Shown one piece after another: positions 2,231 through 62,010 of a stretch of DNA of 64,000 bases. A program made the position numbers and the translations under genes. The notes below the pieces were generated by a model. It saw nothing but the letters and a program-made list of their open reading frames with translations, made no database searches and was not told where the DNA came from. How positions within the stretch are numbered: the first letter of the stretch is position 1; the number at the start of each line of letters is the position of its first letter. Origin of the DNA: Eledone cirrhosa (taxonomy: Eukaryota); assembly GCA_964016885.1 (NCBI GenBank), contig OZ024759.1, positions 20,584,001-20,648,000 on the forward strand, in the 5' to 3' direction.

Positions 2231-2312
2231 AATTATTCCATTACCGAAGGTTTCAAGAAACTAGATGATTCTTGCAAGTAAACAACCAGCTTGTTTGTCA
2301 AACAAAACAATT
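2231..2312 (-). ncRNA. Decayed hammerhead ribozyme, homolog of 41156-41233
   Basis: Minus strand: aattgttttgt-TTGACAA...GAAA-ccttcgg-TA-atggaataatt; core mutated from CTGACGA, stem I still pairs. Confidence 0.6.
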
Positions 2313-2327
2313 GTTGTTTATTATGTA

Positions 2328-2518
2328 AGCGGTGGATTGGCAGTATCGGTAGAGGGTCGGACTCCATGCTTTGACGTATAGAGTTACGGCCCTTGCCATT
2401 CTGAGTTCAAATCCTGCCGAGGTTAACTTTGCCTTTCATCCTTACGGGGCCGATAAAATAAAGTACGAGTAATGCACTGGGTAATTGCTGGCCTTGTGCG
2501 AAAAATAGAAACAATTAT
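2328..2518 (+). mobile_element. SINE family B (tRNA-like head, Nin-type central domain)
   Basis: A-box-like TGGCAGTATCGG, B-box-like GAGTTCAAATCC, gaggttaactttgcctttcatcc...gataaaataaagtac core; many copies in the window. Confidence 0.85.
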
Positions 2519-2859
2519 GTAATTAAATAGCTCTGTACAATACATAGAGCACTCTTCTTTCCTTTACCTTTTCTATGGAAATACTTAACATATATATATA
2601 TATATCACATATATGTATAGATATACACATACATACATATATACTTATATATATAAATATATATATAAAGACCACGTATGTATGTTTCGTTAGCCCTGGG
2701 TACCAACTTGCCACTAGTAACCACAAATTACACACATACATATCTATATATACATTATATATATATCTATATAGATATGTATGTGTGTATGTATGTGCAA
2801 AGGAAAACCAGATGCTTTTAGGAATATAGAACATATCTGTTTTTAAGTAACAAGATTCA

Positions 2860-2919
2860 TTAATCTATAATCAATAATTTCAATTAATCAATCAATTTCT
2901 CTTATCTCATCAGGAGTAA
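2860..2919 (-). ncRNA. Candidate hammerhead ribozyme (weak stems)
   Basis: Minus: ttactc-CTGATGA-gat...att-GAAA-ttattgatta-TA-gattaa; stem I 5 of 6 pairs. Confidence 0.4.
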
Positions 2920-3014
2920 TAAAGGTAAACAAATCCCTAGACTACAGAATAGAAATAAAAAGTGTAAGATAAGAGATAAAATCATCAGCTAATTTTTAAA
3001 TATATATATATATA

Positions 3015-3462
3015 TCATCATCATCATCATCGTTTATGTCCATTTTCCACGCTAGCTTAGGTTAGATGAGTTGTCTTGTTGCGGGCAGTGTCCAGTTGGC
3101 TGACCTTGTCTTGCTAATACAGGAACTGATTCTGGCTTGATTTCTACAGCTGGATGCCCTTCCTAACACCAACCTCATTTACAGTGAGTGCTGGGTGCTT
3201 TCTTGCCGTGGCGCCTACACGTCCACTTTACAGTGTGGGCGTGGTTTTTTTTTTTTTTTTTACTGTGGCACTTCCACAACCACTTTGCAGTGGAATGATA
3301 GGGACTCCAGTCGTATCATCTCATTTCTACAGCTGAGTAAACTGGAGCAATGTGAAATAAAATGTCTTGCTCAAGGAAACAACACATCACCCGGTCTGGG
3401 AATTGAACTCACAGACTTTCATTGCAAGCCCACTCTTCTAACCACTAAGCCATGCGCCTTCA
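3015..3462 (-). mobile_element. SINE family A, full length, long RTE-type tail
   Basis: tRNA-like head (GGCTTAGTGG / GAGTTCAATTC), ccttgagcaagaca core, tail ending in (GAT)n. Confidence 0.9.
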
Positions 3463-4051
3463 CTATATATATATATATATATATATATATATATATATAT
3501 ATATATATATATATATATATATATATATATATATATATAAAAAAAAAATCATTGATATTGTTTTAACGGCTGCTTTCCCTCTTGGGAAGATTTAGATGTG
3601 TATATATATTTGTGTGGGTGTGTGTGTATATACACACACACACACTTTATATATATGTATATATGGAAAAACACACATAATTTTGTTTTCTTTCAAGACC
3701 AGCTGAAGTAGCATTATTGTTTCACACAGGATATTTTTTTAACCCCTATTGGTTATGGTGGCAATGGTGATGGTGTTGGTTGGTTAATCTAAGGAAACTT
3801 AGGGGTCCTTTAATTGTCATAAGACCTCACATGTGGTGTCTGTATTTTCTTTCTATTGGGTATTTTCTTTAGATTTTGTTTGAGAAGGGGTGTGGGTTAA
3901 ATTAAGGGAGCATCAGCATTTCCTTGGTAGTTTTTGTTGAGGAAGGTGTGTGTGTGTGGGGGGGGGGGGATTTGATAAAAATCTGTTCCATTTAAAGTGT
4001 GCATATATATATATTAAAATCTTCAATCTTAACTTTATGTCAGAACCTTGT

Positions 4052-4220
4052 TTAACCCTGTAGCATTTACATTACTCCATATTCGCTATTGTATTTTCAC
4101 AGTAAAGGCTTTACCTCAGATAATTATCTCACATAATATCGAATCTAAGAGATTTTGATATATTGTGAACAATACCTTAACGTCAGTATGAGTGGCCAGT
4201 TACGGCCAGTTTGAACAGAT
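4052..4220 (+). mobile_element. piggyBac-like MITE fragment
   Basis: Starts TTAACCC; internal sequence recurs at about 28610-28796 and 53820-53989, which end in ccggttaa / aagggataa. Confidence 0.55.
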
Positions 4221-4579
4221 AGTTATATATGTATGTATGTCTGGGTGTGTATTTGTGTAAATATATTATATGCACCTAGCTACTGTTCTTGTTTTGATGT
4301 TTTATACAAATAAATAGTAACATTTTAAACTGAATTTATTGTGCAAAAAAGATACATTGCTTATAACTATGATTATAATATTATATAATGCATGCCTATT
4401 CGTTTGAGGGCCCATGTGAATAATCATTCGTTTGAGGGCTCATGTGATTAATTTCAGTTGTGATTCTTGTGGTAATTACTATTTCCTAATATGAAGCTGC
4501 GTTTTTTTTTTAAATATAAACAATGCTCTGGTACAATGTATATTTTGGATGAAATGTTGTGGTTAAGGTAGTTATATCA

Positions 4580-4643
4580 TTTAATTCTGATGATTGCTAA
4601 TATTGAGCTCTATATATTAAGGATGAAACCTATGTAAATTGAA
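4580..4643 (+). ncRNA. Minimal type-I hammerhead ribozyme, intact core
   Basis: tttaatt-CTGATGA-t..taatat/atatta..t-GAAA-c ctat g-TA-aattgaa; 7-bp stem I, predicted cleavage after 4636. Confidence 0.65.
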
Positions 4644-59450: not shown

Positions 59451-59845
59451 AGGCACATGGCTTAGCGGTTAGAGCATTGGCCTTGCAACCGAAAGGTTGC
59501 GAGTTCAATTCTCAGACCGGGTGATGTGTTGTTTCCTTGAGCAAGACACTTTATTTCACATTGCTCCAGTTTACTCAGCTGTAGAAATGAGATGATAGGG
59601 ACTGGGGTCCCTATCATTCCACTGCAAAGTGGTCGTGGAGGTGCCACGGCAAAAAAGCACCCAGCACTCACTGTAAATGAGGTTGGTGTTAGGAAGGGCA
59701 TCCAGCTGTAGAAATCAAGCCAGAATCAGTTCCCGTATGAGCAAGACAAGGTCAGCCGACCGGACATTGCGCACAACAGGACAACCCGTCTAACCCATGC
59801 TAGCGTGGAAGAACAGACGTAAAATGATGATGATGATGATGATGA
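59451..59845 (+). mobile_element. SINE family A, full length, long tail
   Basis: Head, core, hairpin atgatagggac/gtccctatcat, long RTE tail, (GAT)n. Confidence 0.92.
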
Positions 59846-59929
59846 TATATATATATATATATATAACAAGTAAAGCAATGGAGTAAAGGACAATTTAATG
59901 GGCTCAGTAGAGAAGGCCTTATCAGCTTA

Positions 59930-60010
59930 ACACATGCTGACGATCCATAAGGTTGAATTGGTCCCACTAATTTATGGTAAAATATTCTCCTAGTAAGTCT
60001 GTACATGTGT
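59930..60010 (+). ncRNA. Hammerhead with a G12A core change
   Basis: acacatg-CTGACGA-t ccataa...ttatgg t-AAAA-...g-TA-catgtgt; perfect 7-bp stem I. Confidence 0.6.
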
Positions 60011-60730
60011 GATTTAGTTATGAGGCTGGTTATTTCATTTTAATTTATCCTTTTAATTATAATGTATTGCCTAAACCTTTCGTAGTTTATATATTTCTCC
60101 CGCTAGAGGTCTCCGTAAATGAAAACACACTCTCCTGTGTTTTCTCCTCTCTATGTTGTATGTATATATATATATATATATATATATATAGGGTAAAAAC
60201 TCCTTCAGGTACCTAGAAAGTTCCCTGGGCATGGTGCTTTTGTGGAAGACCATGCATACTGCTTTCCCTTCTCCATGCCGCTGATGTTGTCCAAGTGAAA
60301 AGCAAAGACTGAAATAACTTGGCATCAGTAATGTCACAACTCATTTCTATAGCTTAAACTGGAACCGATCTGAAAATCAAACTCACAACCTCTTCATATT
60401 GTGAAACCAACTCTCTAACCACTAAGCCACATGCCTTCACTGTGTGTGTGTATGCGTATCATCATCATCATTGTTTTACGTCCGTTCTTCCACGCTAGCA
60501 TGGGTTAAACGGGTTGTCCTGTTGTAAATGAGGTGATTAATCTCATTTGCATATGAAGCTGCATAAGTTGGCTCAACTTATAATAAAAAAGAAATAGTAT
60601 TTCGCTTCAAGCATAGCTTTATACAATTTTTTTGAGATACAAAATATTTATACAAATTGTATAAAGCTATGCTTGAAGCGAAATCCTATTTCTTTTTTAT
60701 TATAAGTTGAGCCAACTTATGCAGCTTCAT

Positions 60731-60779
60731 ATGCAAATGAGATTAATCACCTCATTTACACAGATGAGAAAAGTATATA
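60731..60779 (+). promoter_or_regulatory. Octamer ATGCAAAT, then TCACC (PSE-like) and TATATA: possible snRNA-type promoter
   Basis: Octamer 60731-60738, tcacc 60747, TATATA 60774-60779; spacing is not canonical and the region also forms hairpins. Confidence 0.35.
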
Positions 60780-60823
60780 TTCTCGCCTGTCTTCTAGTCC
60801 AGCAGTCGCAAGCGGTGGGAGGG

Positions 60824-60867
60824 ACTGTCCTGACGATGGCCAGTTAAGCCTGAAATGCATAGACGGT
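60824..60867 (+). ncRNA. Minimal type-I hammerhead ribozyme atop a long extended stem I (60797-60890)
   Basis: actgtc-CTGACGA-t ggc cagttaa gcc t-GAAA-tgca-TA-gacggt; outer pairs gtccagcag/ctgctggac and gcaag/cttgc. Confidence 0.88.
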
Positions 60868-61047
60868 TGTCCCCCTTGCCTCTGCTGGACATCACCAGAG
60901 GGCGTTAGCCCCCCCCCCACCCCTGGTGTTTGCATAGCTACCGCTTCCTAAAACCGTATTTCTTTGGAGATACGAAATATTTATACAAATTGTATAAAGC
61001 TATCCTTGAAGTGAAATCCTATTTCTTTTATATATATGTATATATAT

Positions 61048-61446
61048 ATTGGCCTTGCAATCGAAAGGTTGTGAGTTCAATTCTCGGACGGGGTGATGTG
61101 TTGTTTCCTTGAGCAAGACACTTTATTTCACATTGCCCCAGTTTATTCAGCTGTAGAAATGAGATGATATGGACTGGGGTCCCTATCATTCCACTGCAAA
61201 GTGGTCGTGGCGGTGCCACGGCAAAAAAGCACCCAGCCCACACTGTAAAGTGGGCGTGGAGGCGCCACAGAAAAAAAGCACCCAGCACTCACTGTAAATG
61301 AGGTTGGTGTCAGGAAGGGCATCCAGCTGTAGAAATCAAGCCAGAATCAGTTCCCGTATGAGCAAGACAAGGTCAGCCGACCGGACACTGCCCACAACAG
61401 GACAACCCGTCTAGCGTGGAAGAACGGATGTAAAACGGTGATGATG
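61048..61446 (+). mobile_element. SINE family A, 5'-truncated, long tail
   Basis: Match to 59451-59845. Confidence 0.9.
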
Positions 61447-61854
61447 ATATATATATATTTATATATATATATATATATATATATATATATATATATATAT
61501 ATATATATATACATATATATATATATTGGGCGTTGGAGCAGCAACATCAATACCCACCTGGTACATATCACACGTTAAACAAAAGATTACATAATAACTG
61601 CCTGAGATCATATCTATTACATAACAGATACCACTGAAATATATATAACAGAAACAAAGTAGTCAATAAAATGACTTCTTCATTATATATATATATATAT
61701 ATATATATATACACACACACACACACACACACACACACACACACACACACACACACACACACACACACACACACACACACACACACACACACATATATAT
61801 ATATATATATATATATATACTCTCATACAGGCACACTGAGACACAGACACACTC

Positions 61855-62010
61855 AGTCGCCTGAGGATCAGGGAATGTGAAACTCCAAGTAGTGTTTCAC
61901 TGAGAACTAGCTTTAGATAAATATTATTACAACCTACCAAACTCTGTTGAGTATTCTTTTTCACTTAATTGCAGTTCACACCAGTAGTGTTACCATCAAC
62001 TACAGAGTGT
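61855..62010 (+). mobile_element. Penelope-like relic with a hammerhead-like core and tail motif
   Basis: CTGAGGA-tca gggaa tgt-GAAA-ctccaag-TA (an alternative fold is possible); tail TTGAGTATT near 61947. Confidence 0.45.

Follow-up and report, generated by a model that had tools for sequence, protein, structure and literature searches.

Type-I hammerhead sequences at the ends of Penelope-like elements and in retrozymes in a 64-kb stretch of Eledone cirrhosa DNA

The DNA analyzed here is a 64,000 nucleotide (nt) stretch of the Eledone cirrhosa genome (contig OZ024759.1, positions 20,584,001 to 20,648,000, assembly GCA_964016885.1, 2.996 Gb) and is termed the window. It displays many hammerhead ribozyme motifs, which on sequence grounds appear to belong to the 3′ ends of Penelope-like elements (PLEs) and to small non-coding elements termed retrozymes. 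Short-period microsatellite makes up 34% of the window. Thirty hand-curated hammerhead-element fragments total 6,050 nt, amounting to 9.5% of the window, or 13.8% when microsatellite is excluded. An earlier reading of the same letters, made without database searches (the sequence-only reading), had proposed that much of the apparently unique DNA consists of ribozyme-bearing ends; this overstates their share, as short interspersed elements (SINEs) and the tails of RTE-type long interspersed elements (LINEs) take up 21% of the non-microsatellite DNA. The fragments are as follows, with repeat families denoted by letters and class names given according to the motifs discussed below.

877..1075, fold-back of family I (Hydra PLE): long arm 1020-877 (-), short arm 1024-1075 (+), 3′ half of the hammerhead only
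2210..2320 (-), relative of family D, decayed 3′ half
2857..2999 (-), weak singleton motif, core 2913, no family found
4560..4690 (+), family H motif, core 4587, base of stem II decayed
10063..10282 (both strands), decayed inverted pair with part of the core in each arm, tail related to family F
10321..10473 (+), relative of family E, 3′ half
10691..10787 (-), decayed family C 3′ fragment
13481..13831 (+), old copy (71%) of a 324-nt retrozyme, core lost
13854..14053, head-to-head pair of family A (Hydra PLE), cores 13976 (-) and 13993 (+), arm ends at +126 and +60 from the core
14367..14744 (+), sub-monomer copy of retrozyme G, intact core 14452, inverted arm 14432-14367, forward arm 14433-14744
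26354..26405 (-), family I short-arm fragment
39387..39717 (-), 3′ end of family B (Hydra PLE), core 39488, first stem I pair mismatched, inverted tail arm above 39566
40820..40893 (-), inverted tail arm of a family D insertion, split from its partner by a later SINE
41123..41261 (+), 3′ end of family D (Hydra PLE), core 41167
41296..41693, family E inverted pair, core 41468 (-) and a decayed partner near 41604 (+)
45285..45480 (+), family C copy, core 45389, with a deletion of the 3′ half of its motif
45740..45933 (+), decayed family C copy
52006..52985, nested ends forming a perfect palindrome of 980 nt: family B tail, family F motif (52199/52770), A-type pairs (52345/52624), central TA tract
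53049..53373, head-to-head pair of family B, cores 53161 (-) and 53273 (+)
53414..53455 (-), family F fragment that retains the 5′ half of its motif
59128..59429 (+), 3′ end of family C (Neptune/Nematis-type PLE), core 59308
59866..60158 (+), decayed F-like motif, core 59937, GAAA broken, weak
60523..61033 (+), retrozyme R, intact core 60830, inverted arm 60627-60523, forward arm of 1.25 monomers with octamer and TATA
61527..61683 (+), decayed member of a further family (one 81% copy in locus L044)
61854..62010 (+), weak singleton motif, core 61861

The motifs were scored with descriptors that call for CUGANGA, GAAA and UH in that order together with stems I, II and III, in strict, loose and one-bulge versions; controls for the strict and loose versions were 100 shuffles at each of three block sizes. 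The window has 6 strict matches (0–0.03 in shuffles), 10 loose matches (0.05–0.11) and 12 one-bulge matches (0.11). The 12 have the make-up of type-I hammerheads and fall at nine places, three of these being inverted pairs. The motifs reported in the sequence-only reading are therefore not chance matches as a group. The bare CTGANGA core is a different matter. It is found 31 times compared with about 21 in shuffles, is thus barely enriched and says little. Chance matching in AT-rich, microsatellite-rich DNA would be compatible with that number, and also with the four listed sites that are weak singletons and the two that are without support. The full motifs however exceed shuffles about 100-fold, both in the window and in random loci, and belong to families with thousands of candidates. 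Chance origin is excluded for the full motifs as a set; as a general explanation its probability is negligible, and it holds only for sites 6927 and 54165 and possibly for 2913, 59937 and 61861.

The motifs also display signs of retained structure. Among nine G-type motifs, 6 of 14 pairs are altered on both sides (0 of 500 shuffles), a comparison biased toward structure as these motifs were selected by descriptor. Cores are retained in copies chosen by flank homology: 13/14 in family A, 12/14 in B, 16/16 in C and 14/15 in F. The window motifs are thus classified as type-I hammerhead sequences whose self-cleavage is predicted. Another genomic family (L001-L010), absent from the window, is canonical and passes Rfam model RF00163 (18 of 74 scored). 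Several candidates were set aside. The CTGANGA cores at 27447, 27560 and 27681 (-) are part of a tandem repeat of 121 nt and fail every descriptor, the cores at 39753 and 53599 merge into a TGA repeat, and in an Rfam E-value scan of the whole window the best 150 of 697 rows are microsatellite matches to microRNA models.

Twelve sites had been described as intact in the sequence-only reading, and a CTGANGA core lies within 60 nt of the coordinate given for each: 2913 (-), 4587, 14452, 39488 (-), 41167, 41468 (-), 52199, 52770 (-), 53273, 53161 (-), 59308 and 60830. Ten of these pass at least one three-stem descriptor. Sites 4587 and 39488 pass none, yet both belong to repeat families, while 2913 passes weakly but has no second copy among the loci compared. 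Of three sites whose stem I had been called uncertain, 52624 has indeed lost most of that stem through truncation and 61861 passes weakly but is a singleton; at 13993 the stem is sound (5 bp), and the mirror core at 13976 (-) had gone unmentioned. Seven of the ten sites described as decayed match a family (2231, 10086/10148, 10380, 41598, 45388, 45810 and 61598). Site 59930 is a plausible case with a singleton motif, and 6927 and 54165 find no support. Fragments that had escaped notice are those of family I at 877-1075 and 26354-26405, and those at 10691, 13481, 40820 and 53414.

The scale of the phenomenon was gauged from sixty 10-kb stretches drawn at random (599.8 kb total). These contain 48 descriptor matches (0.53 in shuffles), located in 24 of the 60 loci and forming 18 clusters, i.e. 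about one per 12 kb. Extrapolation gives a genome total of about 240,000 motifs (bootstrap 145,000–355,000) from a draw that lacked C16, C18, C22, C26, C27 and small contigs and under-weighted C19-C25; one nine-member cluster comes mostly from a single tandem array, so that independent insertions are fewer than matches. With 19 hand-picked loci added (79 loci in all), variant cores are also found, with 17 of the U3-A8 type compared with 0–4 in shuffles and three with CCGA compared with 0–1. At least 12 matches per 64 kb has a probability of about 0.07 in the 79 loci. The high density that had been claimed for the window thus consists of real matches but is the usual density for this genome and the window is no hot spot; 20 kb of adjoining DNA has no descriptor match. 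Judged by sequence, most of the sampled hammerheads are cut-off ends of PLEs and some are retrozymes.

The sequence-only reading had recognized many families with dissimilar stems, and this is borne out: the motifs are of type I, belong to retroelement ends and are spread over many families. It had also linked them to Penelope-like termini and proposed extension of the families to reverse transcriptase (RT) and GIY-YIG endonuclease open reading frames (ORFs). Longer copies were located by genome search and their upstream sequence was read. Six window families (A, B, C, D, F and I) were traced in this way to PLE coding DNA elsewhere in the genome, whereas two of the best motifs of that reading, 14452 and 60830, belong to retrozymes. 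In the window only the 5′-truncated, often folded-back 3′ ends of the six families are present, located in (TA)n. The claim that the window has no coding DNA of this kind also held, as searches with seven and then 14 PLE protein frames matched only a SINE-derived artefact.

In families B (39488, 53161/53273) and D (41167, 2231), independent copies align without a break from the GIY-YIG endonuclease to the motif. In family F (52199/52770) the endonuclease is about 190 nt upstream of the motif in 12 of 15 loci. In family A (13976/13993, 52345/52624) a long microsatellite-rich untranslated region (UTR) joins endonuclease and motif in three copies. Family I (877-1075) is the most common in the sample, with 40 matches in the 79 loci; a full copy flanked by pseudo-long terminal repeats (pLTR-ORF-pLTR) is present in L193, and one further copy bears an ORF. 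A C-terminal GIY-YIG domain with the CxCX5C linker, CxxC and CxH, and no CCHH, was read in D (L138, L142), F (L179), A (L145) and B (L112, L139). Family I displays Hydra-type GIY-YIG motifs in L193, where the last C of the linker is missing in that copy. RWK and DKT are both present in D (L142), and RWR and DKT in I (L193); the reading of A, B and F stopped short of the N-terminal part. All five have the hammerhead behind the ORF and (TA)n insertion. By the motifs defined in PMC8557442, families A, B, D, F and I are classified as Hydra-clade PLEs.

In family C (59308, 45389, 45810), 6 of 16 loci show RT upstream together with an endonuclease joined through CX4CxxC. RT, the linker (within the pattern CX2-5CxxC) and the C-terminal GIY-YIG were read in L164, L152 and L158, and the L164 frame, which is cut, gives a weak Pfam GIY-YIG match below cut-off. 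By linker and domains this family is of Neptune/Nematis type, and either clade is possible. The window copy at 59128..59429 begins, at 59128-59140, right where longer copies have a likely intron acceptor. A Neptune/Nematis-type PLE found in L060, L061, L064, L072 and L095, common in the first sample, has CCAAT boxes, a TATA box, an intron acceptor and a hammerhead 380–400 nt behind the ORF.

Two families have variant cores. In family D the core reads CCGA instead of CTGA in 13 of 14 copies (L125-L138), and the canonical CTGA of the window copy is probably a later mutation. Family I has a U3-A8 core and a long loop 2; an assignment as a type-II hammerhead was dropped, as full copies show the U3-A8 type-I core. 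Pfam found no domain in five Hydra-type frames, and a Pfam search for GIY-YIG led to PLEs that belong to other families and in no case run on into a window motif. Of the sequence in the 79 loci, 1.9% is Hydra-type and 0.7% Neptune-type coding DNA. Protein searches with ORFs (L146 being one query) gave 404 and 717 relatives, most of them without a name; the L146 ORF is Hydra-type but is assigned to none of the window families.

The insertions have a common anatomy. A TA tract is present within 200 nt 3′ of the motif in 35 of the 48 sampled motifs, compared with 19% of 1,360 random positions. An inverted arm is found upstream in 12 of the 48 and a palindromic stem III in 27. Each family examined has two arm end sites, measured from the core at +60/+128 (A), +68/+131 (F) and +97/+189 (I), where for A and F the searches were biased toward the longer arm. 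Of the 62 long arms of family I, 40 turn back within stem II, and in these the core's first half is missing. At the margin of the A-type core, fold-back joints are also present in short-read contigs of one sample, thus the inverted pairs are not merely an artefact of long reads. An inverted 5′ copy and a two-end tail are hallmarks of PLEs (PMC8557442, PMC11167929), and two internal RT start sites account for the PLE tail in vitro (PMC11167929); the paired ends and inverted arms seen here agree with both. The 980-nt palindrome at 52006..52985, which no piece from three contig runs spans, would be one recent inverted duplication of three nested element ends.

The families at 14452 (G) and 60830 (R) differ from the others and are identified by their sequences as non-coding, non-LTR retrozymes rather than PLE ends. 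Both consist of short tandem units, each with a type-I hammerhead and a G+C content below 50%: G has units of 474–492 nt (35% G+C) with an internal TA tract, and R is 324 nt (43% G+C). No coding region is found in whole G and R monomers. R behaves as a 324-nt ring, with circularly permuted copies of up to 1.7 monomers that have many start points and finish close to 120 or 165; among the inverted insertions, 7 of 10 have one arm at each of these ends. In G, all 40 scored matches, from six loci, are identical to the query over 321 nt. The four G arrays fetched in full all read TA, 3–6 inverted units, junction, 4–9 forward units, TA, and in all four head-to-head multimers one end is at 267 and the other at 326. 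The identity of G arrays at several loci points to recent activity, in which case their RNA should be detectable. Two further families, in L221 (486 nt) and L233 (419 nt), are related to G and have the same promoter module, described below.

The retrozyme insertions thus bear the PLE signature, i.e. an inverted arm, two fixed ends 45–60 nt apart and a TA target, and the retrozymes are likely copied by the same PLE enzyme as the PLE ends. Movement by another retroelement, e.g. the abundant RTE LINEs, with the common features being convergent, would accord with the frequency of RTE-type LINE tails and their SINEs in the window, and no sequence common to retrozyme ends and a specific PLE tail has been established. 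However the two-end tail and 5′ inverted copy are PLE features (as cited above) and the TA target is common to retrozyme and PLE ends here, so that movement by such an element is considered improbable. All motifs might instead be plain PLE termini, with the G and R tandems being pLTR fragments amplified locally in the DNA by unequal exchange without an RNA circle. Derivation from pLTRs followed by local amplification is proposed in a 2026 preprint (10.64898/2026.07.22.740005), and the length of the G monomer does vary within arrays through the length of its TA tract. Several observations argue otherwise, namely the circular permutation of R copies over many start points of the ring, the identity over 321 nt of G arrays at separate loci, each an inverted plus a forward multimer with the same two ends, and the finding that no observed G or R copy runs into an ORF or other PLE coding DNA. 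In addition, the G/R module is lacking in, or not common to, 7 of 8 other reference ends (the octamer alone is in B and G only). Local amplification of pLTR fragments appears unlikely, if somewhat less so than transport by an RTE-type element.

The module just mentioned consists of an octamer, ATGCAAAT, and a TATA box 41–42 nt apart. It is located 80–100 nt upstream of the core in the four retrozyme families. In the 79 loci all 22 octamer-TATA modules are followed by a hammerhead (many of these are tandem copies). The three best U6 loci of the host show this octamer, identically flanked, at -76 to -78, together with a GTATA box at -31; the elements are absent from nine lower-scoring U6 copies and from five U2 upstream regions (three clusters). 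The retrozyme module therefore has the same upstream elements as host U6 genes, resembles a type 3 promoter and is a putative promoter. If it works as in U6, transcripts would begin 16 nt (G) and 26 nt (R) upstream of the core. Tandem U6 and U2 gene clusters are located at C19:31.78-31.84 Mb and C3:307.35-307.45 Mb, and one U6 copy (L291) has a SINE inserted beside its TATA box. U6 retrocopies are fused directly to PLE tails at L298:1390-1500 (minus; family A inverted tail) and in L328 (family I tail), and others are located in TA tracts. The fused joints may possibly be template switches by the PLE enzyme onto U6 RNA.

We consider it probable that the motifs are type-I hammerheads situated near the 3′ ends of many PLE families and inside non-coding retrozymes, and that their density likely arises from copying that begins at the 3′ end and, in most (TA)n insertions, stops or folds back soon after. 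Starting from the observed families, the ORF links of six of them, the TA flanks, inverted arms, paired ends and promoter-like module, the following route is proposed. The PLE protein would nick a TA tract on both strands. Target-primed reverse transcription would start at two internal RNA sites 45–90 nt apart, and the complementary DNA may abort or snap back at small hairpins in or near the ribozyme, which would give head-to-head pairs without a promoter. In retrozymes the internal U6-like octamer-TATA module would drive read-through transcription of tandem copies. Their hammerheads, predicted to act as dimers via the palindromic stem III, would cut out monomers, which would be ligated into circles. 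The PLE enzyme would copy round the circle and insert multimers that end at the same two sites. The majority of copies in the genome are likely to be silent fossils.

Several findings weigh against this reading. Rfam gives no hammerhead at gathering score anywhere in the window; model HH9 reaches 18.5 bits at 14438-14500 and there is no hammerhead score at 60830. The lowest-energy fold of single motifs is often not a hammerhead. Families E and H and the family of 61598 share the layout of the others, but the upstream reading reached no ORF. A lizard PLE does not need cleavage for its insertion in vitro and no reads end at the cut site (PMC11167929). The octamer-TATA spacing of retrozymes (41–42 nt) differs by 4–6 nt from that of U6 genes (45–47 nt), and retrozyme monomers hold T runs expected to stop polymerase III, so that polymerase III or another polymerase may use the module. 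Most genomic copies have no promoter, which, along with the folding of single motifs and the lizard result, speaks against a role for each copy.

The association itself is not new, as hammerheads are already known from PLEs and retrozymes and also from an octopus Hydra family. Minimal hammerheads in PLEs, with the U3-A8 core and thousands of motifs per genome, as well as lone and opposite-strand motifs from truncated copies in Schistosoma, were described by Cervera and de la Pena (2014; PMC4209133). The supplement of PMC8557442 lists Hydra-1_Obim of Octopus bimaculoides with a hammerhead and a TA preference, and the family D ORF is like it as judged by eye. The five Hydra-type families resemble the clade as described there in the C-terminal GIY-YIG, the CxCX5C linker, CxxC and CxH, a hammerhead that follows the ORF, insertion into (TA)n, inverted 5′ copies and an optional tail; RWK and DKT of the clade were both read in D. 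They differ in that five distinct families occur in one 64-kb window with most copies shorter than 300 nt, some units exceed 3 kb via long microsatellite-rich 3′ UTRs, and D and I have the variant cores noted above (CCGA, and U3-A8 with long loop 2). Family C and the elements of the L057/L060 type resemble the Neptune/Nematis PLEs of PMC4209133 in their CX4CxxC linker, RT, GIY-YIG, short-stem hammerhead and palindromic stem III, but those number in the thousands per genome compared with the approximately 240,000 motifs estimated here. Octopus vulgaris is reported to have 6.83% Penelope-like DNA in 190 families, with ribozymes unmentioned in the available part of that report (PMC13282606).

Metazoan retrozymes were defined by Cervera and de la Pena (2020; PMC7229834), who name PLEs as candidate movers; the words octopus, cephalopod, squid and inverted are absent from the main text of that paper in its available part. 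Li et al. (the 2026 preprint cited above) argue from trees and co-occurrence for an origin from pLTRs. G and R are like the non-LTR retrozymes of both sources in their tandem non-coding type-I units, G+C below 50% and the presence of PLEs alongside. The G units (474–492 nt) however exceed the described range of 150–450 nt and hold a TA tract, and the G/R arrays differ in being head-to-head, with a fixed two-end tail and an internal U6-like module. A hammerhead repeat with an internal small nuclear RNA (snRNA)-type promoter has a precedent in newt satellite 2, a polymerase II case (cited in PMC2220036), whereas the module here matches the upstream region of host U6 and not U2 and is a putative promoter for either polymerase. 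The record so far is that of the axolotl, 126,247 motifs (PMC7229834; Li et al. 2026). No report of cephalopod retrozymes, of this insertion signature or of the U6-like module was found in literature searches that did not extend to subscription papers or the Cervera supplements, nor was an earlier report found for the scale.

In the remainder of the window, minisatellites are present at 9064-9932 (48 nt), 42866-43447 (48–49 nt), 20828-22069 (54 nt) and 27415-27769 (121 nt), the 48-nt ones being derived from part of a SINE. Sequences at 6547-6876, 40026-40727 and 42049-42705 are 3′ fragments which we take to resemble RTE LINE coding ends; the two tested have no Pfam match. Transfer RNA-like matches above the Rfam threshold at 42522-42592 (-), 11895-11952 (-) and 6242-6305 (+) are probably SINE heads.

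The phenomenon is real and genome-wide and is largely explained by known biology; the retrozyme arrays and the promoter module are the part of most interest. A stronger claim is held tentatively, with slightly more doubt than belief. According to it this genome has the largest hammerhead load yet described (2–3 × 10^5, one per 12 kb), and the very young retrozymes in it, through their head-to-head multimers, two-start tail and TA tracts, would reveal a PLE enzyme copying ribozyme-made RNA circles that are transcribed from a captured U6-type promoter. If this is true, units that carry TA tracts and also insert into TA tracts, as several here do, would feed the microsatellite load of the genome. 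The estimated count implies that a considerable share of the short repeats of this genome are hammerhead-bearing PLE ends overlooked by Pfam and Rfam. The autonomous mover of animal retrozymes has so far been argued from co-occurrence and trees. Here the insertions themselves carry the PLE signature, and they predict two RT start sites on retrozyme RNA, at monomer positions 267 and 326 in G and about 120 and 165 in R, which may be tested by an existing in vitro assay.

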